A stretch of 64,000 nucleotides of DNA. It comes from Daphnia carinata (taxonomy: Eukaryota). The stretch spans positions 14,198,001 to 14,262,000 of the forward strand of contig NC_081331.1 of the NCBI RefSeq assembly GCF_022539665.2. Reading direction: 5' to 3'. The notes below the pieces were generated by a model. That model was not told the DNA's origin and did no database searches. It saw only the letters and a list, made by a program, of their open reading frames with translations. Positions 6,549 to 61,200 of this stretch are shown here, one piece after another (position 1 is the stretch's first letter; each line of letters starts with the position of its first letter). The translations under genes were made by a program, and so were the position numbers.

Positions 6549-10329
<3,781 letters not shown>

Positions 10330-28600: not shown

Positions 28601-28997
28601 CTTGGCTCTGCATTTTCCGTACCAGCGGCTGTTGCTCAGTTCCGGCATCCCGGACGCTCTGGCCCAGCTGGTCCTTCCGTCGGACGAGTGGTACTACACC
28701 AACCACACGACGCGTTTCTCTCGGATCGTCAAACACCACGCGGCCCGGGCTCTGGTCTACCTGGGACTGGCCCGCTGTCTCGGCCCTCGCGTCTCCCTCT
28801 TTGATTTTCAAGGTATTTCCTAAGAATTTGCATATGATAATCAACGATCGATAGTGTGCGTTCTATAGCGATTCAACTGAAAATCTCTTTATTGGGCTCC
28901 ATTGAAAAAAAAAAAAAAAAAGCACAGGCAGAGAATGCTGTTTTATTATATGGATCTGATGAAGATTCATTTCGCCATCTAGCGGCACTTTTTTCCC

Positions 28998-43800: not shown

Positions 43801-45655
43801 CGGCCCAGCGTGTCATTCCCATCAACTATCTGAGGCCGGGCTATCGGCACGTCCGATTGAACAACACGCAAAACCAGCCGCTGCCGCTCTCTTCTCTTTT
43901 CATCCACACGAAATTCGAGGAGGAAGGATACGACGTCATTCACGGAAGTGCCAAAGCGACCCTTCCATCGTTGAACGTCCCCCTCATCCCGGGCAACGAG
44001 CTGGACTCTGCCGCCGATGAAGATCGAAGTCCAACAGCGCTGACCAGTCCCAGTCAGGAGGAGAATCCCGACGGGCCGGGAGGAGCCGTCAAACGGCGAA
44101 TGTTCTTCCTCATCGTTTACGGCGTCCAGAATGTGGGCGGAACGGGAGCCCAGGGTGTTGCGCCCAGCCGGAATGAAGAAGAGCCTTATGTGATTCTCAA
44201 AGTGACGCAGGATTGCACGTCCGAGACGGTCATCCGCAAAGCATTGAGCAAACTCCCGTCGGCGGCCAGCGCCACGCCCGTCCACCTCCAGTTGCACGAC
44301 TACCTTTTGCTGGAGGAAGTCAATCGCGGATGGGAGCCGTCCGACAGACTTTTGCCACCTTTACAGAGGATTTTGGATGCCCAAGAACGGCCACTAGAAG
44401 CGCAGGCCAAATGGCGAGGAGAAGGCCGGTTCATCTTACGCCGCATTGGAGATGATCCAAGTTCTAGGGCGTGGCTTTCGTCCATTCTCAATTCCAACCA
44501 GAAAATGAAATCTCGCAAGGTTCTATTTTTTTAATAAATCGTTTAGCTTTTTTCATTCTAATGTTTTTTTTGGGGGGGGGGTGTGTGGGGAAATAGATTA
44601 GTAAAGTGGCCGTCCGTCCGGAATCGTGCAAAGTGGAATTGAAAGAACGCAGCCGCTTGGAGGACGAAGACTCTGGTGATGAAGATGACAACGATGAGGA
44701 TGAAGATGACGATGATGTTGGATTAGCCGAAGAAGAAGAAGAAGAGGAAGAAGAAACGTTTCTTGTCTGCGTTCATAATGTCTCACCGGAAATTCCGTAC
44801 GCCATTCTTAAAGGCCGCGTGACCGACACGGCCAAAGACATTCTTCTCCAGGCGCTGCTCAAGGTACAACATTTGTTATATCGCATCATTTATTTATTTT
44901 TTTTTTTTTTTTTTTTTGGTATTAATTAAATTTTAATGAAATTTAGGCGAGAAAACCACACGAACTGGAACGTTACGTTCTTGTTGAAGAACGTGATTTA
45001 GGTCCATCTTTGGGCCGGCATCGTCGCGTCCTTCGTGACGACGACAATGTGCATCAGGTTCAAGCCAGATGGACCACCTTGGGCCGTTTCGTTGCTGTTG
45101 AACGAGGCAGGATAAGAGCGCGCAACGGGAACGTTGACTGGAACGACAAAGTTGGTCCAACGACGCCGGATATGAATAGGAATAAAACGGGCGCCATGCT
45201 CCGAGCGTCTCTGTTCACCAGACGATTACAACAGAGCACGAAAAATTCAAAACTGCAGGTTCTTAAATCTTTTAAATTTAAAGGTAATTATCCAAATATA
45301 AAATCGCAATTTTTTCGAATAGGTGAAGGAGATGTACAGCGATCCTGGATTAGGTCAGAGTGGCCGATCTCGTGAGCGGATTCGATCGGATTCGAGTTTG
45401 GCACGCGACGGAGTTCAACCGACCAGCAGCAACGTCCATCCAATCAAGAGTCCGTCTTCTCGCGATACGCTCAGCAGCCTGGAACAGTTTTCTCCGCAGC
45501 GGACGGCCTACTCTGAAGGCGAATGGAATGCGGATGACACGGACGCCGATGCCGACAGCGGCGGAGGTGGAGGAGGGAACCAGGATTGGGAGTTGCGCTC
45601 CACTGTCGCCAAATTGAAGAAAATGTCACTACGAACGTTCCGTCTCTGGCGATGA
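36715..45655 (+). CDS. PLCE1: Phospholipase C epsilon: FERM-like, CDC25/RasGEF, PH, EF, X, Y, C2, RA1, RA2 (exons include 36715-36873, 36957-37424, 37522-37674, 38020-38118, 38221-38703, 39175-39320, 39395-39653, 39757-40507, 40566-40782, 40899-41887, 41955-42444, 42507-43101, 43167-44519, 44597-44863, 44947-45258, 45323-45655)
   Basis: X-box [16 protein letters not shown]...[20 protein letters not shown] with both catalytic His. Y-box [16 protein letters not shown]...QMVALNYQT. RasGEF motifs [10 protein letters not shown] and [11 protein letters not shown]. Two RA domains. One in-frame TAA at 38533-38535. Confidence 0.93.
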
Positions 45656-46499
45656 ATCACCCACAATCTTCGATTAGATCTCACGCCCTCCTTTGTGTAA
45701 TAACGTCGTCTGTTATAGGAACAATGTTCTTGTTTACATCGAGTCCTATTGACTTGGACCGTTTTGATACTGTACACCATCTTCTTTTGTTAGTCCTTTC
45801 GTTCCAGTTGCTTTTGTTTCAAAACACGTTTCTTAATAAGTTGGTGATTCTAGTCCATTTGTCTGATTGACCTCCTGTACATATTTTTTTCTTCGTCGAT
45901 GGACTTTGAATATTGCTGATTCGTGCACAAAAAATGTTTTTCATGTTTGTCGTCCATTTGCTTGAAGTTTTTCCCATCTTATTTTGCCAGGCGATTTCGT
46001 GATTACCTCAATCATGGAACGTGTAGAAGGAAGTGCCGTAATTCCTTCCTTCTAGCAACCTGAGCAAACATATCCAAATCAGTTAAAACTGTACAATCCG
46101 ATATTGTTCATATTTCTTCCCCTACATTTTTGACTGGCCCAATGATCCCCTTTTTGTCGTCATTTTGACATGAAAAAAATTGTGTTATGTATGCAAAATG
46201 TAAAACTTATTGACAAGAACGTCCAAAATAATAAGCTGATTCAAATGTCGGTTTCGTATCTTACTATGTAAATCTCTCAGTGAGTTTCTATAGTAATAAA
46301 ATCGGTTTGCTAGCCATCGACGGGTTTAAGCGAAATCCATTTTCTATGAATAAAAATTCACCTTGATATTATGGCAATCCGTTTCATATGGCAATCCGTT
46401 TTACCCAAAATAAAAATAAAAAATATTGGCCTTTTTTCTGTTTTACTGCTATCGCCATCTACCGATCACGCTACTAGTTAACTCTCTACTACACTGACC

Positions 46500-46592
46500 G
46501 AAAAAAATTTTTAAGCCCGACTAATTAAGGCCGACTAAATAAGCCCGACTTTTCTCGGTCGGGCTTAAATTTATTATTTTGTCGGGCTTATT
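46500..46592. repeat. Miniature TAAGCCCGAC inverted-repeat element
   Basis: Three TAAG(C/G)CCGAC copies are directly followed by two GTCGGGCTTA copies. Confidence 0.7.
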
Positions 46593-46758
46593 TAAAACCT
46601 GGCCAAATAGTATTTCCACTAGATGGCGTGCAGATTCATCAGCCTCTAGCGTGTTGAAATGGAACTATTGTTATTTTTTGTTGTCATGTGATTCTCATTG
46701 TTTACTTTGTTTTTACGTTGACAACGTGTATTTGAGTTTCTCTCGTCTGAACGGTATC

Positions 46759-47687
46759 GTTATTTCTGTTTGTTTTTTTTTGTTGTTTTTACCTCCACCC
46801 CTATTATCGACGTGCAAATATTCTTCTTTTGTTAGTAAACATATCCAGTAGTGGAGTTGCAAGTAACAGATGGGTTCTGTTGTGTACTTTGCACATGTCG
46901 TGGTTTGTTGCATGATTTTATTACTTTGTGAATCAATTGTAACTTATTTACGAGACATTCTTGAAGATGTGCTATTTGCTAATATTCTGCAAGAATGGGA
47001 TCACCCATTTACTTCTGTCTGGTAATAACCATATCTGTTCAACTATCCCCTTAATTCTGATGACTACAAAATTAAGGGGATGGTTTTAAAACATTAAAAC
47101 ATTATTGTTATTTCTGTTTTTTTTTGTTGTTTTTACCTCCACCCCTATTATCGGTGTGCAAATATTGCACTGCTTCATTACCTAAACGAAATGTCAGCCG
47201 TTGCACTTGGGCTTAAAATGAGGTAATATTAACATACTTTTGGAAAACCAGGTCTCATGTTGTATCATTCTGGGTAAAGCCAGTGTTACAAGCAGAACTG
47301 TGCATGATATTTGGTGAAAATCGATGGTTTTTGTGTTTACAACCAAAAGCCAATTTTCAGGATTATTAAGATGATAATTTACTACTTTTACATTTGCAAC
47401 ATGTTAATCTTATTCTTCTTTTGTTAGTAAACATATCCAGTAGTGGAGTTGCAAGTAACAGATGGGTTCTGTTGTGTAATTTGCACATGTCGTGGTTTGT
47501 TGCATGATCTTATTACTTTGTGAATCAATTGTAACTTATTTACGAGACATTCTTGAAGATGTGGTATTTGCTAATATTCTGCAAGAATAGGATCACCCAT
47601 TTACTTCTGTCTGGTAATAACCATATCTGTTCAACTATCCCCTTAATTCTGATGACTACAAAATTAAGGGGATGGTTTTAAAACATT
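46759..47687. repeat. Tandem direct duplication; the first copy lacks an internal ~245 bp segment
   Basis: 46759-46822 matches 47107-47166, and 46819-47095 matches 47411-47687 nearly identically. Confidence 0.9.
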
Positions 47688-47845
47688 TGCTTCGATTATT
47701 ATGTGTGTGGTAGTGATTTGAAGTGGTATACAGGTCGTACCTGAAAGCTGAACTTTAAGAACTTTGAAAGGCCATGTTATGTTCATTTACTATAGTTTAC
47801 ATTTGAAACTACGCAGATCTTTTGTAAGTTGTGAAGGAGAACATA

Positions 47846-48244
47846 GTTCATTTTTTACATTTTCGAAATTATAACTTTCAGTACAACTTCCGGTTTGAAA
47901 ATGCCTAATAACTCACTATCTGTTGGTCTGAATGAAAAAAGAACCACATTTTCGTAATCCTCGTGAAATTTGGGGTCGAATCCATGTGTCAGTAGGAAAT
48001 AGCCGAAAATCGTCAAAAATCGCAAATTTCCCTGAACTATAGTTCAGGAAAAATCACGATTTTGGCCAAATTGGACTTTTCGCCAAAAACAGGTCAAAAT
48101 AGGTCAGACACGCCCTAAATTTCACGAGGATCACGAAAATCATATTCGTTTTGTTGTGGGCCCAGTATTTCTGGAGATATAGGCTACTTCCGGTCACTTC
48201 CGGTAAATTTTTTTTTTAAACTTCGCAAAAACTAAAAAATGAAC
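47846..48244. mobile_element. ~400 bp palindromic MITE-like element nested in element A
   Basis: Ends GTTCATTTTTT / AAAAAATGAAC. Internal inverted repeat ATTTTCGTAATCCTCGTGAAATTT (47948) / AAATTTCACGAGGATCACGAAAAT (to 48140). Central perfect palindrome CCTGAACTATAGTTCAGG at 48030-48047. Confidence 0.65.
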
Positions 48245-48583
48245 ATTAATATGCCAAACACTTTAAGCATTTCGATCATATATGAAATGGTGTAGAAGCT
48301 TCTTTCGTGCTTGTTTTGTTATTTTACTGTTGGTTGATCGCGCGAATTGATATACTTATGACACTACTTCGTTAACAGAGACTACTAGCATTATGTATCA
48401 CGCTAATGGGAAGGTATACCTGGTAAATATAGATCATAGCATGAAGATATACCACATACTATTATTATAACCTTATCACGCACGGCCATCTGATGTATAG
48501 TCAGGTTGAAAAATAAGCCCGACTTCTTGTTTTACGTTACGCTGTATCGTATTAGCACGGTACAGGTAATTACATAATATTAA

Positions 48584-48650
48584 TAGCTCTGAGGTAGAGC
48601 GTCTGACTACGGGAATCGAGAATCAAGAGTTCGAGTCACGTCTGGATCCA
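48584..48650 (+). pseudogene. Degenerate tRNA-like sequence resembling tRNA-Arg(ACG)
   Basis: A-box-like TAGCTCTGAGGTAGAGC, then GCGTCTGACTACGG as in the eukaryotic Arg-ACG anticodon arm, then B-box-like GTTCGAGTC. The stems are broken. Confidence 0.6.
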
Positions 48651-48845
48651 ATGTGCCAGAGGATTGAATTACGGTTGCCACTATAGACAATATTTCTTTG
48701 TACGAAAAATGAATCACTCTATTGTATTTATAGGTGACATTCCGAGACGGAAATATTAAATTGCGTTGGGACGCACAACAATATTATTACAAGTGCAAAT
48801 AGATTTCCTTCAAAAGACATGGAAAAATAGTTATTTAATTTACAA

Positions 48846-48916
48846 GACTCATGGCTCTATGGTTGAGCATCGGCGTCGCACGCCAGAGATCAAGGGTTCA
48901 GTCCCCTAGAGAGTCA
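48846..48916 (+). pseudogene. tRNA-like cloverleaf, Ala(CGC)-like
   Basis: Acceptor-like GACTC/GAGTC, D-arm GCTC-TATGGTT-GAGC, arm GGC-GTCGCAC-GCC, T-arm AGGG-TTCAGTC-CCCT. Confidence 0.6.
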
Positions 48917-49275
48917 AAATGAAAATAAATATGTGTAACTCAAAATGTCAAATCTGATATACAATGCATGTATACTATTCAATATCAGTAATTCACATAA
49001 AGTTGTAGAATCTCCATGAAGTGAGATTAAAGTGCATCGTTCCATAATCTGTCTAACAACGAAATATAGTCCCATGATTGGGAATAGCAAAAACTGAAAA
49101 TGTAATGTATACGTCAATAAATTGACATAGCGACATCTATAAGGAAATGTATGTGTAATAAATAAGGAAATGTGAACAGTGCAGTGCAACAGCACGACAG
49201 TAAAAAAGACAATATCTGTAAATATTTTTTTGTAAAGAATTTGTATTGACAGTATTCGGCACAATTTGAAGACTT

Positions 49276-49641
49276 GCAACTTTGAAAGGCAAAATAGCCG
49301 ATTTCAAAGTTGCTGTCAACCAAGGTAGGGGGAGACACTACCTCAGTTTGACTCACCGGGGAGATTACCCGGTGCGTGGCTAAGAGAAGCCGGAAGAAGA
49401 GCGAAGGTTGCGGACAAGCTTTTACGTGAGCGATTAACTGTTAATTCGGATTTTTGGGTAGCCCCATAGCCCTCCAATGATATCATCGGACCATGAGGAC
49501 CCCCACGTCCCCTTTCCAGACAGCGCACTCACAACCGTTACTGCTGATCACAGTAGGGGCATGACCCCCTACGGGCTTATTAAAAATCAAAGGGAAACGG
49601 GGCCACAGAAAAGAAGGGAGCCCAGATATACACTTCAATTT
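49276..49641 (-). ncRNA. Conserved multi-hairpin structured element, copy 1 (diverged); function unknown
   Basis: Alignable to 53207-53587 and 54490-54870 with stems preserved. Strand inferred from G-U-compatible substitutions. Confidence 0.5.
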
Positions 49642-49879
49642 ATATAAATTTTAATACTTTGTTTTCCGGCCGCAGCAACGACTGAAGGTAATGGGCAGGA
49701 AGCATTTTTCAAAAATTCCTTCGGGCTTCCAACCGTTATCATTATGAAATTTGGTTCGACTAGATACCTCTTTTGATTCAGTATGATTCTTAACCTATTT
49801 AAAGAAAACGAAACATGAATCAATTTTTAAACGTTTGCCCATCAATATATATTCAATAAGGATCGGTGCAATCCTTCTT

Positions 49880-51380
49880 TACCTCTTGTTTTGGTGAACT
49901 ACTGGTATTAACTGTATTCAGCTAATGGTTTGACAGACATAGTGCTTGCTTGGATGGTAAGTTGACGGGCAGCGAAGAAACTAATCATTAAGCGACTACC
50001 TATTTTCTAATACCTATGCAAAAAACACAATAAATGGCATTTTAATTAGTTATAATCATGGGTTTCCAGGCACAAAAAAAGACAGACTTACTGGGTGAGA
50101 CGGTTCAAAACGTTCCAACTTCTTTCAGGACCCCTGCATCAGAATGACAGACTGAGGATGAGTTCGGAAGTCGCGAATTGAGATAGCCAATTTCGGTAAT
50201 ATACTTGATCTCTTTCATACTAGGCATGTAATCTAAATTTGCTGTACAATGTACAACAAAAAACAAAGCAGTAAAATAATTCTGTATAAAAAATTACTAA
50301 ATTGCATTTTGTTACACCTATTTGGCTTTGTAAAGTGATACTAACTTACAACATAGTCCTGTGAAGTTGCTCACCGGGCATGACAAGCAATACATCTTCG
50401 ATATAAGCTGAAGCAGTCTGATTCAAGAATGCTTAGGTTGTCCAAAAACACTGCATACTGACTGATGGAACAGCAGAAAATCAGGATGTAGATTAATTGA
50501 TTTTCCAGAAATAAGTACCTTTGACGTTTGAAATTCTGACCAACTGTTTTTGCTGTTCACATTTTTCAAAATGTTCAGCACATACTTAAGGCCACCATAG
50601 CACAGAATTTTTTCCAGTTTTGCAAACATACCATCACAGCATCTATGAGGAACAGGAGAGGTTAAAGTTTTCTTTCTTTAAAAATCTATTTATTTCATAA
50701 CATACCACGATAAGCTCTTCTTTTGTAATGGGCAGCCCTCTCTAAGTACTTGCATAAGTAATGCTTCAATACTTAGAACAGCTGAAACAAGCAGTTGTGA
50801 TAAAAAAAAGTATCAGCACCACTGGCAAGAATATAAGCATGAAGACTTGTTATGGACAATATCTACAATTGGTACAAATGACAGATGGGGTGAAACTACA
50901 ATACGACGAACTAAACTGAACCTTCCTCATTGATGTGTCAATCTATAGAAGGATTTAAATCTTTCTTAATGAGACATGCAGGATACTGTTTAAAATTTTA
51001 GTAAAGATGGTACCAAATGCTGAGTTACTAGAAATTTTGCCCGGAAAATCTCCAACTGACACGTGAAACATAAATCAGCTGTTCTGCATTTGCAAATCCA
51101 GTGTTCAAGTAACCATATTATCCAATCCATGTCTGCCATGTCTTGGTGTCACATAGAAAATCGTAAAAATTGTTTTAAAAAAAGAATATATTTTTTTCGA
51201 TAGTGAGTTTTATTAATATCTAAATAACGAAAGTCATATGTATACTCACAGATGTATCACTTTTCAATCCAAAGAAGTCTTATTTTTTTCTTAAGCCAAA
51301 CTTTTTTGTGAAGAAATGAAGAGTTTCTACTGGCATTACTCATTTTCACTGAAGGAAATCCTTGCAAACACACCATATTA
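49880..51380 (-). pseudogene. Decayed multi-exon gene remnant carried in element A; product not recognised
   Basis: A regular series of minus-strand donors (plus-strand ACTCAC ~51244, GTAC ~51010 and ~50516, CATAC ~50701, ACTTAC ~50086) and pyrimidine-rich acceptors. The exon-like blocks contain stops. Confidence 0.35.
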
Positions 51381-51751
51381 GGAGCAGCGCGACGAAGCAG
51401 AAATATTAGGTCAATGTATATAGAGAATTAACTAAAAATCTGACCGTTAGATGGCGATAGCAGAAATACAGAAAAAATGCTTATATTTTTTTTGGGGGTT
51501 GGGGGGGGGGGTAAAACGGATTGCCATATAATAACGTATATATCTGGCAATCCGTTTTACACAAAAAAAAAAAAAATATCGCCAAAAAAAAAAACAAAAA
51601 TCGCACTTTTTTCTTTTTTTCCGACACGTAGCCATCTACCGCTCAGACTCGTTATGACTAGCGTAGGCAATTTCAGTCCATTGGATTCCATTCGCAGTTA
51701 GTTCAGTAGCGTGGATGGAGAATAACGCGTGGCTGGAGGAACAATTGAAAA

Positions 51752-52355
51752 ATGGATTAGATAATAAAACAAAAAAATGGTAAGTATAAACATTATTATA
51801 TTGGTTTTCAATTATTAATTATTGTTTATTAGATCAAATTATGAAGCTGCAGGCCCAGTTATTGGAACAACACAAAATATTAGATAACAACAAAGCTAAG
51901 GATCGTAGGCCTAATACGTAATGATTCTATTTATTTGCTTTTATTCATTCGTGTTTTGTAGCTCAAATTTTGAGTCTACAAGCTCAGCTAGGGGAAAAGA
52001 ACAAATTGGAACGAAACACTTTCCAAACAGTGAAGGAGGTTTTTCAAAACTCATCCCTAACTGAACGTGAGGATGAGTTGGCATTAGGTGAACACAGCCA
52101 GGTACCTAAACTTTTCAAATAAGAATTCAAAATAAGTATAGAATTTTAAAAAACAATTATTTATTGTTTAGTTATTCAGTCCACTACCTGACAGCGTGTT
52201 AAAGTTAAATTCTGTTAGTGCTGCACTAAAAGAATTGTTAGTAATAAGCCCATGCAGTGAAGGAACTGAACAATTGTGGGACCATATTTGGGCCGAAAAT
52301 GGGTGTGGTACAGAAACCCAGAAATGGCACAAGTTCAACATGAAACATGGATTAG
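51752..52355 (+). pseudogene. Disabled copy of the spliced coiled-coil cargo gene (left arm)
   Basis: Same exon/intron layout as 55722-56326, but codon 3 is TAG (51758-51760) where the right arm has AAG. Confidence 0.55.
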
Positions 52356-53206
52356 GTACTTTTCGGTTTTTTGTCTATCGAAAAAGTATTTTTAATGCTA
52401 TTATTTTGCATTCACAGAACTTTAGCAGGGGATTAAGTCAAGTCTGGAAGTGTTACAGGATGGAAGAGTCAGCCTACAGTTGAAAAAAACACTGAGAGTG
52501 CATTACCATTAAGCTATGAGGTAAAGTAATAGGGTATGCACATTGTCTAATGAGAAGTACCATCTTGTGTGAATGAATCCTGTATAACAGCAATCCTTTA
52601 TAGTTCTGTCACAGCTAGAAGCCTCAAATAATTCTGCTTCCCTTGCTAAAGAACAACTTGTCCTTTACGCTCAGTGTTGGTGAAGCTGGGTACTTAAATG
52701 GCCCTAAAGATGTTTCACTTCACTGGCATTGCAGCGATGAACATCATACATAGACTCTTTAGGTATGAAAGGAATTTTCTTGAAAATTTTTTGAATTTAT
52801 GATGAAGCTTTTCTCCTCCTTTTTGCCAACCATGTCTAATCTACAAAAAAAAAATTATCCAATAGGAAAGGATTTTCAGCATACTGGGAACACAACTATC
52901 AACAATGCAACATTCTAGGGGTTTTATTTTATCATTCAAGAGCCTTATACAATGATTTTCATCTGCAATTTGTATGGCCTTTCCCAAGCTTCTGCTAGAA
53001 GTTGAATCTATGAGTCATGTAAGTCATGAGCAACAATTGAGATGCTTAATGGTGTTTTTCTTTTCTCAGTGTAGGTTAATAGTAACATTGGATCTGAAAA
53101 GATTCTTGGTTGGGGCATGACACTGAATAAATTGTAATGATTGAATGGATGACATGACATTTCTATACTTCATTCGGATTCCCGAGACGGTATTTTATAT
53201 TTAAAA

Positions 53207-53587
53207 AATTGAAGTGCATATCTGGGCTCCCTTCCTTTCCGTAGCCCCGTTTCCCCTTGACTCGTAATAAGCCCGTAGGGGGTCATGCCCCTACTGTACG
53301 GTATATATAAAAACAACATATACCGAGGTTTGGAGGGCTCTGGCCGGAAAGGGGACGTGGATGTCCGCTTAGTCCGATGATGTGTTCACGGAGGGCTCTG
53401 TGGCTACCCACAAATCCGAACTAAAGGTTAATCGCTCCTGTAAAAATGTTCCAAATCTTCAGCTCTTCTTCCGGCTTCTCTTAGCCAATCACCGGGTAAT
53501 CTCCCTGGTGGGTCAACAAGGCAGTGTCTCCCCCTGCCTGGGTTGACGGCAACTTTTGAAAGGGCTATTGTGCCTTTTTAAAGTTGC
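53207..53587 (+). ncRNA. Conserved multi-hairpin structured element, copy 2; function unknown
   Basis: Hairpins GTAGGGG/CCCCTAC, CGGTATAT/ATATACCG, GGAC/GTCC, TGTGG/CCACA, CACCGGG/CCTGGTG, GTCAAC-AGGCAG/CTGCCT-GTTGAC and GCAACTTT-GAAAGGGC/GCCTTTTT-AAAGTTGC. Confidence 0.5.
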
Positions 53588-53883
53588 AAAAATAATTGTA
53601 ACGTGTAGAGAATTGTCAATAAATTTTTTTTTCATAAAATATTTTTTGCAAAATTTGTCTCTTTCATTGTCTGTGTTCGCTTTGTTCACACATTACAATT
53701 ACCAAATTTTTTTTTATTTAGCTTGCTCAATTCATCTTTATTGTTTTTGCCACCGTTGTATCGTTTATCTGTAAGTATTCAATTATTATTATTACACTTT
53801 TTGAATTCTTGAACTTAGACAAGAAACAACGAGTAATACCTGGATATTTTCTGAAGTAATTTTGTAATTATATATTGTTTTAC

Positions 53884-53948
53884 TGGCATGGGAATCGATC
53901 CCCAGACATTTAGCGTGCAACGCCGATGCTCTAACATTGAGCCACGAG
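53884..53948 (-). pseudogene. tRNA-like sequence, Ala(TGC)-like
   Basis: The minus strand reads GTGGCTCAATGTTAGAGCATCGGCGTTGCACGCTAAATGTCTGGGGATCGATTCCCATGCCA, homologous to 48846-48916. Confidence 0.55.
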
Positions 53949-54047
53949 ATATATTTAAAATTTTATTATCGCATATCATATGTTATCCTCTAGGATGTTT
54001 ATGCAGTCTTTCACAACTATATGTTTATCTTTCTATTGCTTTCGTAA

Positions 54048-54110
54048 GGTCCATAGCTCTGTGGTAGAGCATTCAGCTGCGATAACTGTTACCCTGGGTT
54101 CAAACCTTAC
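54048..54110 (+). pseudogene. Degenerate tRNA-like sequence
   Basis: TAGCTCTGTGGTAGAGC (A-box/D-arm, one mismatch from 48584-48600) and GGTTCAAACC (B-box consensus GGTTCRANCC). Confidence 0.55.
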
Positions 54111-54232
54111 TAAATGTATAATGATCTACATCTAAATGGAGGAAAGAATAATGCACTAATGCATTTCAATTTTATTCAAAGTGTAAATGCAAGTCCGCAA
54201 GTGACTAGAAAAAAGCCAACTTGACATCATAT

Positions 54233-54300
54233 GATTCATGGCTCATTGGTAGAGCATAGGCGCGGTATGCCGAACATCCAGCGTTCGATCCCTGGATAAT
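54233..54300 (+). pseudogene. Degenerate tRNA-like sequence
   Basis: GATTCATGGCTCATTGGTAGAGCATAGGCGCGGTATGCCGAACATCCAGCGTTCGATCCCTGG has an A-box and a B-box. It is homologous to 48846 and 53884. Confidence 0.55.
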
Positions 54301-54489
54301 AATTGAATGCTTACAGCCTACACTGGCAAAAAACAATATAGGTGAATTGAGCAAGCTAAATAAAAAAAAAGGCGATATATGTAATGTGTGAACACAGCGA
54401 ACAAAGACAATGAAAGAGACAAATTTTGCAAAAAATATTTTATGAAAAAAAAATTTATTGACAATGCTCTACACGTTACAATTATTTTT

Positions 54490-54870
54490 GCAACTTTAAA
54501 AAGGCACAATAGCCCTTTCAAAAGTTGCCGTCAACCCAGGCAGGGGGAGACACTGCCTTGTTGACCCACCGGGGAGATTACCCGGTGATTGGCTAAGAGA
54601 AGCCGGAAGAAGAGCTGAAGATTTGGAACATTTTTACAGGAGCGATTAACCTTTAGTTCGGATTTGTGGGTAGCCACAGAGCCCTCCGTGAACACATCAT
54701 CGGACTAAGCGGACATCCACGTCCCCTTTCCGGACAGAGCCCTCCAAACCTCGGTATATGTTGTTTTTATATATACCGTACAGTAGGGGCATGACCCCCT
54801 ACGGGCTTATTACGAGTCAAGGGGAAACGGGGCTACGGAAAGGAAGGGAGCCCAGATATGCACTTCAATT
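54490..54870 (-). ncRNA. Conserved multi-hairpin structured element, copy 3 (mirror of copy 2)
   Basis: Reverse complement of 53207-53587 with very few substitutions. Confidence 0.5.
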
Positions 54871-55721
54871 TTTTAAATATAAAATACCGTCTCGGGAATC
54901 CGAATGAAGTATAGAAATGTCATGTCATCCATTCAATCATTACAATTTATTCAGTGTCATGCCCCAACCAAGAATCTTTTCAGATCCAATGTTACTATTA
55001 ACCTACACTGAGAAAAGAAAAACACCATTAAGCATCTCAATTGTTGCTCATGTGACTTACATGACTTATAGATTCAACTTCTGGCAGAAGCTTGGGAAAG
55101 GCCATACAAATTGCAGATGAAAATCATTGTATAAGGCTCTTGAATGATAAAATAGCACCCCTAGAATGTTGCATTGTTGATAGTTGTGTTCCCAGTATGC
55201 TGAAAATCCTTTCCTATTAGATAAATTTTTTTTTAGATTAGACATGGTTGGCAAAAAGCAGGAGAAAAGCTTCATCATAAATTCAAAAAATTTTCAAGAA
55301 AATTCCTTTCATACCTAAAGAGTCTATGTATGATGTTCATCGCTGCAATGCCAGTGAAGTGAAACATCTTTAGGGCCATTTAAGTACCCAGCTTCACCAA
55401 CACTGAGCGTAAAGGACAAGTTGTTCTTTAGCAAGGGAAGCAGAATTATTTGAGGCTTCTTGCTGTGACAGAACTATAAAGGATTGCTGTTATACAGGAT
55501 TCATTCACACAATATGGTTCTTCTCATTAGACAATGTGCATACTTTATTACTTAACCTCATACCCTTATGGTAATGCACTCTCAGTGTTTTTTTCAACTG
55601 TAGGCTGACTCTTCCATCCTGTAACACTTCCAGACTTGACTTGATCCCCTGCTAAAATTCTGTGAATGCAAAATAATAGCATTAAAAATACTTTTTCGAT
55701 AGACAAAAAACCGAAAAGTAC

Positions 55722-56326
55722 CTAATCCACGTTTTATGTTGAACTCATGCCATATCTCGGTTTCCGTATCACACCCATTTTCGGCCCAAATATGGTCCCA
55801 CAATTGTTCAATTCCTTCGCTGCATGGACTTATTATTAATGATTCTTTTAGTGCAGCACTAACAGAATTTAAATTTAACACACTGTCAGGTGGTAGACTG
55901 AATAACTAAACAATAAATAGTTGTTTGTTAAAATTCTATACTTATTTTGAATTCTTATTTGAAAAGTTTAGGTACCTGACTGTGTTCGCCTAATGCCAAC
56001 TCACCCTCATGTTCAGTTAGGGAAGAGTTTTGAAAAACCTCCTTCACTGTTTGGAAACTGTTTCGTTCCAATTTGTTCTTTTCCCCTAGCTGAGCTTGTA
56101 GACTCAAAATTTGAGCTACAAAACACAAATGAATAAAAGCAAATAAATAGAATCATTATGTATTAGGCCTTACCATCCTTAGCTTTGCTGTTATCTAATA
56201 TTTTGTGTTGTTCCAATAATTGGGCCTGCAGCTTCATAATTTGATCTAATAAACAATAATTAATAAGTGAAAACCAATATAATAATGTTTATACTTACCA
56301 TCCTTTTGTTGTATTATCTTATCCAT
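55722..56326 (-). CDS. Putative spliced cargo gene encoding an uncharacterised protein with an N-terminal coiled coil (exons 56326-56299, 56245-56174, 56115-55976, 55905-55722; 3' end unresolved)
   Basis: Four GT-AG exons join into 141 open codons: MDKIIQQKDDQIMKLQAQLLEQHKILDNSKAKDAQILSLQAQLGEKNKLERNSF...EQLWDHIWAENGCDTETEIWHEFNIKRGL. Confidence 0.5.
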
Positions 56327-56617
56327 TTTTCAATTGTTCCTCCAGCACCGCGTTATTCTCTCCATCCACGCTACTGAACTAGCTGCGAATGGCATCCAAT
56401 GGACTGAAATTGCCAACGCCAGTAATAACGAGTCTGAGCGGTAGATGGCTACGTGTCGGAAAAAAAGAAAAAAGTGTGATTTTTTTTTGTTTTGGGGAAT
56501 TTTTTTTTTTTTTTTTTTTTTGTAAAACGGATTGCCATAATCATCTACGTTATTATGAACAGCCTCTATTCATACTCGCCATCTAGTTTCCCGATGGAAA
56601 ACTAAATTGATTGGTGG

Positions 56618-57882
56618 AAAAGTCGGGCTTATTTTGTCGGGCTTATTTTTTGACATAAATGTTATGACCTTATGCTAGCGCGCCAGTACGCTACAACACT
56701 AGCGCGATGCTGCATATTCGGCGTATTTCCAAAATGGTTGCCTGAATGAATAAAATAACAATGTTATCGGTTTCAGCATTCAATTTTGAGTATATCCTGT
56801 GATTTTCAACCAATCCCGATGAGTGCTGGTTTGTGCAGGAAAAAATTTTAAGCCCGACTAAATAAGCCCGACTACATATATAAGCCCGACTACATATATA
56901 AGCCCGACTTTCTTATTTTTTGCACGAATATTCGGTATATTTAAAAAAACGGCTAACCTGACAAGAAAACGAATGGCTTTTTCTGAATCAGCGTTAAATT
57001 CTGACTATAACGTATGATTTTCATCGAATTCCAAAAGATTTTATTTTTGGCCGATTTTATCAAAAGTGAGAAGGCTAAAGCCTTCTCATTTTTTCATTTT
57101 TGGCTAAATTTTAAATTTCGCTTAAAATACATGATTTCGATTCAGAATTGAATGTTTATCACGATACTAAAATTTATTTTTCAATTGGCCTCATAGTTTT
57201 TAAATTAAACGTCAAAAACACTAGGTCGGGCTTATTTTGTCGGGCTTAAAATTTGTAACTGCAAAAACTGACGCTCACTGGAATTGGTTGAAAATCACAG
57301 GATATAGTCAAAATTTAATGCTGATTACGGAAAAATTGCTATTTTTACCATTAAGTTACTCGTTTTTGAAATACACCGAATATTTGACACAATGCTAGCG
57401 CGCCAGTATGCTACAGCGCTAGAGCGATGCAGCATAGATATATTCGGTGTATTTCCGAAATGGTTGACTTGATGAATAGAATAACATTTTACAGGAATCA
57501 GCATTCAATATGGTATATATCCTGTGGTATTCAACAATTCCGATGAGTGTCAGTTTTTGCAGAAAAAATTTTTAAGCTCGACTAAATAACCCCGACTTTT
57601 CTTATTTTTTCGTTTTTTACGTTTAATTAAAAAATCATAAGGCCGATTGAAAAATAAATTTTATTTTCATGATTACCATTCAATTCTGCATCGAAATCAT
57701 GTGTTTTAAGCGAAATTTAAAATTTAGCCAAAAATGAAAAAGTGAGAAGGCTATAGCCTATTAAGTCAACCATTTTGGAAATACCCCGAATATATCTATG
57801 CTGTATCGCACTAGCGCTGTAACGTACTGGCGCGCTAGCATATAGGATCAAATATTCGGTCTATTTCTAAAACGATTAACTT
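56618..57882. mobile_element. Complex foldback cluster of the TAAGCCCGAC family
   Basis: 56672-56860 is repeated directly at 57392-57600 and inverted at ~57240-57385 and ~57760-57841. 57065-57220 is inverted at ~57610-57760. TAAGCCCGAC arrays occur at 56618-56647, 56849-56910 and 57225-57250. Confidence 0.75.
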
Positions 57883-58288
57883 TCACGAACCTTTTTCGTT
57901 GTCATGACAACCAGAGAGCCATCTAGTGTTTGATAAGCATAGGAAAGAGGAAGCAGACTACGTTCAATAAGTTTGACAGCTTACCGGGGTTATTAGGGTG
58001 TGTGAGCTTTTTTGTTGGGAAGGAACCGTAAATAGAATGGTAAAATTAGACTTCTCCCCTTCGTGAACATTCGAGCGTCTTCGTGGTTTCTAGAAAGAAA
58101 AAATTTGTTTTTAAACTTTCAGTGAATGCGCTCCACGTTTAGTATTATCTAGCGCGCTATTCAAGAAACTTTGGAATTGCTACAGGTGAAGTACCAATTA
58201 CGGTGAGCTGCTGGATTTGAACAAAATCTATTTTATCTCTGGATCACATTTACTTTTTTACTTTTTATTTTTAAAATCTTTTAGGAAA

Positions 58289-61200
58289 ATGACTCATGAT
58301 AGTCCAACTGCACAGCTCAAAGAGGCTGGTAACGCAGCCTTCGCAGAAGGAGATTGGGACAAGGCCTTGACATGCTACACACAAGCTCTAAATTTGATTG
58401 AGTTGGACACTCCAGAGAAAGCTATTCTTTACAAAAATAAAGCAGCAGTGTACTTAAAAGTATCCGACTATGAAGCTGCCATCAAGGACTGTACTGCCTC
58501 TTTGGAAATCTCTCCCAATGATCCAAAAGCCCTTTTTCGTAGGTGCCAAGCATATGAGGCCTTGGAAAAATTTGAAGAGGCTTACAAAGATGCCAGACAA
58601 GTTCACAATTTAGATAAGAACAACAAAGCCATTGCACCCATTCTTCAAAGACTGCATGATATAGTCCAAGATAGGGTATGTTTTAAACAAAACTTGTTTA
58701 CATTTGTTTAGATAGAATCGCCCAGCAAATTATTGAATGTCGTCTGTCTTCCAGATGGCTCGGTTTGCTCAAACTACCACAAAAGTTACCCAGATGATGG
58801 AAATTGCGTTCGACTTGTCCACGACGGTCGAAAAGCGGGAAACGGCGACTTCCAATCTTCTAGTGCTTGCCAAGGAAAGTGCCGGTACGTTTTCCTGTTC
58901 AATTACACTATATTAAATTACCAATTACTATGTTTTGCTGATTTTTTTGTCGAATCTTTTAAATGAATTAATTATTTCTTAAAAATAAGGAGCTGATTTG
59001 TTGGTCAAGGAAGGGATATTTGAAAAGATTAACTCCCTGTTGAAAAAAGAAACCACTCCAAGTATTGTAGTGTCTTGTATTCGCATCGTCAGTGCATTGT
59101 GCAAAGGAAATTTGCCTCGGGTGAGTTGTTTTTGTTTACCACTTTTTCTATTTAATATGTATCTGAATGATTATACATCCAGGCTAAAATGGTTCTTCAA
59201 TTGCTTGGAGTTCCTTGGCTTCTTGATCAATTAAACTCAAATAATGATGACCAAGTTAGTGCAGCTCAGTATTGTTGTCAAACAGTGATCAATACCATTT
59301 CAGGTCTAGATTTGAAAGATGATAAACAACCCGATAAGGCGCTGTGTGAAGGTTTTTACCATTGAACTCTTTCTTTATAATTTTCGTTTTAAAATAACCA
59401 CAAAATTTATGTACATGAACAAAATGCAGCAAACCGCAAGGAAATCGACACCATTTTAACGTGCCTGATTTACTGTTCTACTAGCCGCACTATCACTGGA
59501 AAATGCCGAGATGCTGTTCTTGAGTTGATGATGAGGAACTGCGAATACCGTGCCTTAGACTGGGCGGAGCGTCTGGTCGATATCAATGGTATGTCTGAAG
59601 CTAAGTCGAACTAAATAGGAACTCGAGCAACACTTTTCAAACTGAATCTTTGTGAATTGTCGTTTTTAGGTTTACAGCGAATGATGCAAATAGCCAGTGA
59701 ACTGGAAGAGATGAAGTACGAATCATCAATGGAAATCACAGAAAATACGCGAACCATCATCTCTTGTGCCTTGGGCAAAGTCTATGACAACATGTACTAT
59801 GATTTGATCAAAGAGCGTTTCAGTGCAAAGATTGAAGATTTTATCCAGTAAGTTTGTCATTCTTTTTCATTGCCGTTTTTTTAAATGGAGGAATTATCTT
59901 GTGATCGTATTTTTAATTAGCGAACAACTACAAACTCCTGGCATGGAAAGCAAAGTTCGGGTGGTGGTTGCAGTCACAACATTGCTATTAGGACCGCTTG
60001 ATGTGGGCAGTTCTATTATAGGCAAGGAAGGTGTTTTAGAAATGATTCTCGTCATGGCCAACAGTGGCGACTTTCTTATGCAGGTAAGAAAAAAAGCTAT
60101 TTGTTTGACTTTTGATGAAAAAGAGTTCAATGCCTCTGATGACGCTCCTATTAAACTCTTTTTTAGCGAGTCTCGTGCGAGGCCCTGATCGCTGCCGCGT
60201 CGAAAAAGGATAAAGCGTCAGCTATTCTAGCCCAAGGTGTCACGATTCTCAAGAAACTCTACCAAATTGGCAATGACAATATCAAGGTAGGTTCGCATAC
60301 GAATAGAAATTAATAGGGGAAAAAAAAAAAGCAAAGTTAAATGAGTGACGAGTTGATTTTAAAATTACAGGTAAGAGCTTTGGTTGGCTTGTGCAAATTG
60401 GGAAGTTGCGGAGGCACTGACTCCTCTTGGAAGCCTTTCACTGACGGTTCCACAATGAAGTTGGCTGAAGCTTGTCGCAGGTGAGTCACGCTTTGTTTCA
60501 ATCTTATGAATAATTCAATTCACTTCAGTAAATTTGTTTTTTTTTTTAGGTTTTTGATCAACCCAGCGAAGGACAAAGACATGCGCAAGTGGGCTATTGA
60601 AGGCCTTTCCTATTTAACATTAGATGCTGAGGTTAAGGAGAAACTCATTGAGGACAAGGAAGCTCTTCAGTCACTTATTGAAGTGGCAAAGGTAGATAGT
60701 GAGAACATAATGATAGCATGGAATTTCTTAACGGCAAAACTTTGTCCATTTCTAGTCTGGAGATTTTTCAGTTATTTACGGAGTCGTGTCTACTTTAGTG
60801 AATCTTTGCAATGCGTACGACAAACAAGAAATCATCCCCGAAATGCTCGAATTAGCGAAATTTGCCAAACGGCATGTTCCGGAACAGCACGAATTGGACG
60901 ATCCCGATTTCGTTCATAAACGCGTTGATGTACGTATAACAAAAAGTTGGGATTGGTGAAACAATTGTTTTTTACTGTAAGATTTTTTCGATACTTTCAG
61001 ATTTTAGGGAAGGCAGGCGTTACGGTTGGTCTAGTTTCCTTATGCAAAACAGAGAGCGAAAATTGCAAAGAATTGATCGCAAGGTAAAACTTTGCCTTTT
61101 TCGTTTTTTTTTTTTTTTTTAACTTTAATCTAATGACGTTACCATTCTAGGGTATTCAATGCTATTTGCGAACACCAAAATTTGCGCGGCATTGTCGTCC

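Follow-up and report, generated by a model that had tools for sequence, protein, structure and literature searches.

Two adjoining elements in Daphnia carinata with IS3EU/GingerRoot-type ends and an apparently undescribed internal hairpin and tRNA-like module

IS3EU and GingerRoot DNA transposons, which have been placed in one lineage (PMC10045372), are the closest described systems to a locus that we analyzed in Daphnia carinata, where two adjoining elements of ~5 kb, A (46387-51528, 5142 bp) and B (51543-56539, 4997 bp), lie within a 64,000-nucleotide stretch of contig NC_081331.1 (the window, numbered from its first base). IS3EU elements end in TA..TA (PMC10045372), those of fungi in TAYGG..CCRTA with 6-bp target duplications, and terminal inverted repeats (TIRs) exceed 30 bp in both IS3EU and GingerRoot (PMC12730594). 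GingerRoot elements measure 3.9-12.9 kb and have TIRs of 100-150 bp; copies with captured fragments lose the DDE region (PMC6839031). Styx, an IS3EU-related element of Zymoseptoria, hops locally and forms tandem-inverted copies, with degenerate copies moved in trans and rearrangements (PMC10853768). The structure and function of IS3EU are largely unexplored (PMC11934779).

A and B resemble IS3EU/GingerRoot in their TAYGG..CCRTA ends, TIRs of ~120 bp and size near 5 kb, arguably in their inward, opposite genes, and in a probable transposase-like N-terminal relic, the DDE region being lost in derived copies. On the other hand, we found neither a 6-bp duplication nor a DDE core, B is a palindrome as a whole element, and both elements contain a hairpin segment and tRNA-like units, features that the available text on IS3EU/GingerRoot does not mention; the word "tRNA" occurs 0 times in the available text of PMC10045372 and PMC6839031. 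Styx is similar in that it inserts locally, forms tandem-inverted and rearranged copies and has its degenerate copies mobilized in trans, but it is fungal and has four protein genes, and the available text mentions no RNA modules (PMC10853768).

The layout of A and B is real and non-random, and we assign the chassis to an established type: it most likely derives from IS3EU/GingerRoot, is non-autonomous and represents no new class, while its internal module is apparently undescribed and selected. In tRNA-derived short interspersed elements (SINEs) and tDNA/TFIIIC barriers, A and B boxes occur although no valid tRNA is formed, as in five units of our locus; unlike in SINEs, the five heads differ, flanking duplications and tails are missing, and position and polarity are fixed within a DNA transposon. 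Foldback elements, Pack-MULEs and Mu killer carry spliced gene pieces on long inverted arms, as B does, but the terminal signature and protein link of B point to IS3EU, and its center has RNA-like modules. Our literature search found no paper on a hairpin/tRNA-like module in such transposons; Repbase Reports and most subscription journals were outside its reach, and the family may be catalogued there.

Ends and genes of the two elements

An earlier note, made from the bare sequence, had described three half-units with GGCAATCCGTTTTAC termini. We found GGCAATCCGTTTTAC at all four ends (46390+, 51525-, 51546+ and 56536-), together with a fifth, truncated tandem copy at 46373, but the true starts lie three bases (TAT) further out. 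Once these bases are included, the ends read TATGG..CCATA, with TATGG at three of the four element ends and at the extra tandem copy, and TCTGG, one change away, at B-left. The sequence TATGGCAATCCG occurs four times in the window, always at an element end (A-left twice in tandem, A-right and B-right), and 0 times in 50 shuffles. Approximately 100-120 bp, including GCCATCTA, are common to all four ends, and the TIRs of A (~120 bp) are 75% identical over 123 columns. Both the IS3EU/GingerRoot end signature (TAYGG..CCRTA) and a TIR length above 30 bp are therefore present, and these IS3EU-type ends bear out the mobile chassis that the note proposed. A scan of viral contigs with the terminus pattern gave two loci, where the likeness is limited to 18-22 bases.

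Comparison of the window with itself revealed one 2275-bp inverted repeat, 51528-53789 versus 56556-54296, at 95% (blastn), and a 396-506-bp match at 76-79% between this inverted repeat of B and 49171-49649 of A. Since B1 and B2 are the arms of one inverted repeat, the locus holds two independent versions of the layout, with A-right as the sole independent one beside B; the common order and polarity of the half-units stand, while their threefold repetition reduces to two lineages. In each complete half, a spliced gene reading inward, also as the note had it, is followed by a foldable conserved segment, a hexamer, a T-rich tract and A/B-box units on the opposite strand. This order and polarity are kept in A and B though their genes have no detectable likeness; the lengths of the two elements are nearly equal despite unlike contents. 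In B the second gene in opposite orientation is a further copy of the first, and in the A-left arm no gene was recognised. The DNA is eukaryotic, with short introns. We rejected an assembly artifact for B because its arms differ at ~4% of aligned positions and have unlike centers.

Searching with one exon of gene B gave 32 candidates, among them 13 clusters that together comprise 93 sequences, each an "uncharacterized" D. carinata protein of 118-162 residues; the gene B family thus numbers 93 or more sequences in this species. Among the 47 matches listed, of 86 members, the family is found on at least 10 different large contigs, a dispersal measured on gene B proteins alone, and at least four cases are adjacent-numbered pairs that are identical or nearly so. 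A gene B profile run against 1.84 billion proteins gave 10 matches at E<=0.001 (two family members, four D. magna, one D. sinensis, two unnamed and one unrelated repeat protein), and all named relatives of the element proteins are from Daphnia. This profile matched the D. magna protein P0057 at E 1.6e-7, gene B exon 4 aligns with P0057 over 51 columns (hhalign probability 97.9), and in the reverse test a P0057-type profile without B sequences placed B exon 4 at the top of the window (E ~1e-14). In the ESM Atlas, the best match of P0057 scores 0.96 and may be its own cluster; the second, at 0.92, is an "Integrase core domain-containing protein", the clusters are eukaryote-only, and of 10 structure rows, 5 have clusters with PF24764 (rva_4). 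Neither Pfam nor NCBIfam gave a name to any element protein, and protein-to-locus scans gave no match.

From these links we interpret gene B as the N-terminal part of a transposase, truncated and preceded by two coiled-coil-like exons, and the cargo of B looks like the element's own transposase relic. Together with the ends, this tells against the note's proposal of an undescribed class carrying host cargo. Exons of B2 after the fourth have stops in every frame. Between B1 and B2, exons 2-4 show 16 changes at 319 non-synonymous sites and 10 at 77 synonymous sites (pN/pS 0.39, p 0.019), small numbers that weakly suggest non-neutral evolution. The D. magna proteins P0056 and P0058 share the coiled-coil-like exons of gene B (51961-52101) but have a different C-terminal part; they are possibly the second gene of the element family, with 5' exons common via long terminal repeats.

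Gene A is broken in all frames. DNA likeness between genes A and B shows no excess (score 505 versus 512 +/- 42 in shuffles), their sole match, in the last exon, has E 2.2, and the note's statement that the contents of A and B differ stands as measured, though for B the notion of cargo is doubtful. The gene A exon at 50641 is the best non-B match of the P0057-type profile in the window (E 0.083, 9.7 bits; next 5.9), and gene A may be an older relic of the transposase of gene B. We dropped a likeness of gene A to P0056/P0058 (tblastn E 1.6-2.8), which disappeared with profile search, and a likeness, judged by eye, between exons of both genes and the core of IS3EU in a published alignment (PMC10045372), for which a scan with one motif gave no significance.

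The hairpin-rich element and the facing tRNA-like units

The ~370-nt multi-hairpin element of the note was recovered in three copies of 375-400 nt. Copies A and B2 are identical in 304 of 373 aligned columns, and A and B are 76-79% alike by blastn. On the gene strand, copies B1 and A fold beyond shuffles (z -3.2 and -4.7, with 0 of 100 shuffles as good for each), and the opposite strand of copy A folds better than 99 of 100. Between the arms of B, the hairpin element has 2 mismatches in 395 positions compared to 81 in 1847 elsewhere (p 2.4e-5), the latter divided among terminus (12/169), 5' part (40/780), 3' exons (16/708) and linker (13/190); against the 3' exons only, p is 0.027. Gene conversion may have contributed to this sameness, but the more central linker is not homogenised. 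Together, these findings suggest that the hairpin module is selected, and the note's view that the non-coding modules are under selection is upheld for this element.

The strand on which the structure would act leans toward gene-sense. Three-sequence folding gave a covariation term of -0.86 on the gene strand compared to +4.34 on the other; on the former, pairing survives 10 one-sided and 3 two-sided changes while 8 pairs are broken, and on the latter the counts are 2, 2 and 17. Among 48 hand-picked pairs, 5 are variable and all 5 stay paired, 4 of them as G-U on the gene strand. Counting against a gene-sense structure, a two-sequence rerun found the strands alike (3.25 versus 3.5), covariation of the hand-picked structure failed to beat the shuffle control (155/500), and the strand is thus unsettled.

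A poly(A)-signal-like hexamer lies 25-30 nt past the last hairpin in all three copies, followed by a T-rich tract. A hexamer and then a T-rich tract is the look of a transcript end, which the linker after the hairpin element would resemble. A stand-alone Pol III gene was ruled out, as A and B have no upstream element or terminator in common, and so was a known Rfam RNA: Rfam 15 gave three matches at E<=1 in 44000-59000, none within the hairpin element, and no covariance model matched it. DNA patterns of the element occur 0 times in viral contigs and 0 times in prokaryote genomes, and the single metagenome match, in 63% GC bacterial sequence, was dismissed as chance; no second genomic copy of the module was encountered.

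A UCUC-containing loop is present in each of three consecutive 3' hairpins on the gene strand (53470-53545, with counterparts in A and B2), and the TAAGCCCG core occurs once inside each hairpin element. The 11-12-base sequence TTCC(C)GAGACGG lies just upstream of the hairpin element in B (53179/54898), between the two tRNA-like units of A (48740) and at 9498. At relaxed ARAGORN thresholds, a Ser-like fold appears on the anti-gene strand of the hairpin element (54590-54677 and 53400-53487), which is probably noise, with 11 calls window-wide at that threshold.

Five tRNA-like units, each combining an A box and a D arm with a B-box-like motif, all face the hairpin element. The A-box/D-arm pattern, chosen after the units had been seen, occurs five times in the window, all in these units, with 0.085 expected. 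The facing units of the note are thus real, but they are not valid tRNA genes: ARAGORN called 0 at standard thresholds, no Rfam tRNA match was found, and relaxed thresholds called just tA2 and tB2b among the units, with 11-31 calls window-wide. Pairwise, the units are identical at 32-41 of 57-61 positions (54-72%), with tA2 and tB1 closest. A tRNA-derived SINE insertion was ruled out by this divergence of the heads and by the lack of convincing flanking repeats or tails. On the units' own strand, the first run of five Ts comes 247-641 nt downstream and the first of four Ts 116-641 nt downstream, in the linker, so any Pol III transcript would end near the end of the opposite transcript. A TFIIIC-barrier role of the units would fit this sequence arrangement.

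Terminal motif, junctions and the A-left arm

The motif that the note saw ~65-95 bp inside the termini is present: GCCATCTA lies 64-87 bp inside each (46454, 51455, 51631 and 56449). We counted 10 copies in the window against 1.5 expected (~7-fold), 6 of the 10 outside the termini, where motifs of this type lie at 28974, 32768, 41550, 46616, 56578 and 57918; judged by these counts, GCCATCTA is a common motif of this genome and possibly part of a terminal promoter. The terminal copies contain only an 8-base half of what we take to be the CTCF core consensus, and the single window match to the full 13-base core, at 46616, is outside the termini. With the terminal copies departing from this core, their CTCF identity, which the note had suggested, is weak.

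A spacer of 14 bp separates the ends of A-right and B-left, which are arranged head to head. Eleven bases of this spacer are mirrored outside the B-right end and the mirror stops at the A-right terminus, as would be expected if a transposase had made an inverted duplication or if the insertion site had been palindromic. Alignment of the halves showed that the hairpin element is not in the A-left arm, though a terminus is present there, and Pfam gave no family in six frames of the A-left interior. This arm holds a palindromic piece of ~190 bp (47948-48140) with 28-bp inverted ends, resembling a miniature inverted-repeat transposable element (MITE). A separate MITE- or foldback-like repeat family, with inverted 14-18-bp units containing TAAGCCCGAC, occurs at 56617-57890, 46503-46600, 48510-48527 and 493-865. 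A gene containing tetratricopeptide repeats (TPR) begins at 58289 on one side of the locus; the flanking genes are presumably a phospholipase C gene (PLCE1) and unc-45, as named in the note.

Table 1. Features of elements A and B, in window coordinates
Feature	Position	Strand	Remark
Truncated tandem copy of terminal repeat	46370..46386	+	directly outside A-left end
A-left TIR	46387..46502	+	TATGG start; GCCATCTA at 46454; 75% to A-right over 123 columns
A-left interior	46503..48575	.	unrelated to other halves; patch of 14-bp repeats, direct duplication of 277 bp (46819/47411), MITE-like palindrome
tRNA-like unit tA1	48578..48650	+	A box, D arm, B-box-like
tRNA-like unit tA2	48846..48916	+	folds as cloverleaf; closest to tB1 (41/57)
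T-rich linker of A	48917..49273	-	AATACA, poly(A)-signal-like, ~25 nt past last hairpin; role inferred
Hairpin-rich conserved element, copy A	49274..49649	-	
Gene A	49700..51140	-	broken, intron-bearing
A-right TIR	51406..51528	-	
Spacer between head-to-head A-right and B-left ends	51529..51542	.	14 bp; 11 bases mirrored outside B-right
B-left terminal region	51543..51700	+	starts TCTGG, one change from TATGG
Gene B1	51752..53130	+	spliced; stop at third codon, exons 2-4 open; in multi-copy Daphnia family
Hairpin-rich conserved element, copy B1	53195..53590	+	
T-rich linker of B1	53591..53879	+	AATAAA ~30 nt past last hairpin
tRNA-like unit tB1	53880..53952	-	
tRNA-like unit tB2a	54046..54118	+	
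tRNA-like unit tB2b	54230..54302	+	B1/B2 match stops at 3' edge (54296)
T-rich linker of B2	54303..54486	-	
Hairpin-rich conserved element, copy B2	54487..54882	-	
Gene B2	54950..56326	-	spliced; exons 1-4 = coiled-coil-like peptide + stretch homologous to transposase-like N-terminus
B-right terminal region	56380..56539	-	TATGG start

Origin of the chassis and possible roles of the internal module

We consider it quite likely that the chassis is derived from IS3EU/GingerRoot, because of the TATGG..CCATA ends, the dispersed gene B family and the link of gene B to a transposase-like N-terminus. Several results weigh against this reading. None of 5 end pairings has a 6-bp target duplication (best 4/6), 0 of 18 read-through frames matched a transposase family, and no DDE core was detected in the window. 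The match of gene B is confined to residues 12-62 of P0057; Pfam has no family on P0057, our search retrieved no longer or full-length relative of it, none of its ESM Atlas structure rows reaches the family-naming bar, its single-sequence AlphaFold model (predicted local distance difference test, pLDDT, 41.7) is too poor for a fold search, and equating PF24764 with IS3EU is our own inference. For gene A, a homologue search gave no match and ESM Atlas scores of at most 0.77, its best link to the transposase-like N-terminus is the match at E 0.083, and in a scan for the IS3EU core motif it ranks 11-15 of 81,137 positions. Since the locus is nested and rearranged, its ends may not stem from single insertions, and we hold IS3EU/GingerRoot membership to be likely rather than established.

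For the module, we lean with modest confidence toward a structured 3' end of the transposon transcript combined with facing TFIIIC/Pol III barriers. A and B would be non-autonomous and depend for their movement on a transposase from another source. A spliced RNA, driven by a promoter within the terminal repeat, would code just for a truncated transposase N-terminus, with the hairpin segment as its structured 3' untranslated region (UTR). By binding TFIIIC/Pol III, the tRNA-like units would keep transcription from running on into the opposite arm; in the palindromic B, such read-through would give double-stranded RNA of 2 kb, and the family would be silenced. B itself probably arose from two family halves joined tail to tail or from a transposase-made inverted duplication ending at the A-right terminus.

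It is unlikely, though a serious candidate, that the inner modules are instead passengers without a role, namely a host non-coding RNA together with pieces from a tRNA cluster, captured by an IS3EU-derived chassis and conserved via recent capture or gene conversion. Gene fragments were captured in 22 of 77 GingerRoot elements (PMC6839031), none of the five units is a valid tRNA, and the units, with only 32-41 of 57-61 positions identical, differ between otherwise 95%-identical B arms; yet order and polarity are the same in A and B despite genes without detectable likeness, the hairpin element is more conserved than both of its neighbors in B, and no Rfam family fits it. Quite improbable, in our judgement, is that the hairpin element serves transposition as a cofactor in RNA or single-stranded DNA form, for example as a transposase scaffold or an IS3-like copy-out signal, with the units steering insertion or expression. 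The hairpin element has been kept where coding capacity was lost, three of its 3' hairpins have a similar UCUC-containing loop, and the head-to-head ends 14 bp apart resemble IS3-type end junctions. However, we saw no guide-like variable region or target complementarity, the element sits where a 3' UTR is expected, and our literature search turned up no report of such a need.

Maize Mu killer silences its own family via hairpin RNA and small RNAs, and B, with arms that are 95% complementary and genes facing inward, could in principle do likewise if transcription through its center gave a 2.2-kb hairpin RNA. The adjacent-numbered gene pairs (at least four among the 47 D. carinata matches listed) suggest further paired copies elsewhere, in whichever orientation. 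We regard such a silencer as very improbable, since the gene B family is spread over at least 10 contigs among the matches listed, poly(A)-like signals and facing units precede the center of B, and A is left unexplained. Least probable of all is that the ends belong to another superfamily, such as ISL2EU/PHIS, and that the transposase-like match is a captured fragment. ISL2EU/PHIS elements have GG ends, an AT duplication and a Harbinger-type transposase; here AT lies directly outside GGC at 4 of 5 ends and the 6-bp duplication is missing. On the other hand, the TAYGG signature includes these same AT bases, CT is found at B-left, the likeness at the protein level leads to an integrase-core family, and the 18 read-through frames yielded no Harbinger-type transposase.

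A more far-reaching possibility, which we find decidedly doubtful, would be a eukaryotic DDE lineage dependent on RNA machinery of its own, a conserved, structured 400-nt RNA required for mobilization or escape from silencing plus exchangeable tRNA-derived Pol III units, still selected after the transposase had decayed to a peptide under weak purifying selection (pN/pS 0.39). Within the literature searched, no internal cis-module had been proposed for the IS3EU group, so that the hairpin element and the tRNA-like units facing it would be the first. With it one can test how a DNA transposon that is palindromic and present in many copies avoids making double-stranded RNA. Our findings also suggest that ~90 proteins of D. 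carinata now called "uncharacterized" are remnants of transposons and not products of host genes.

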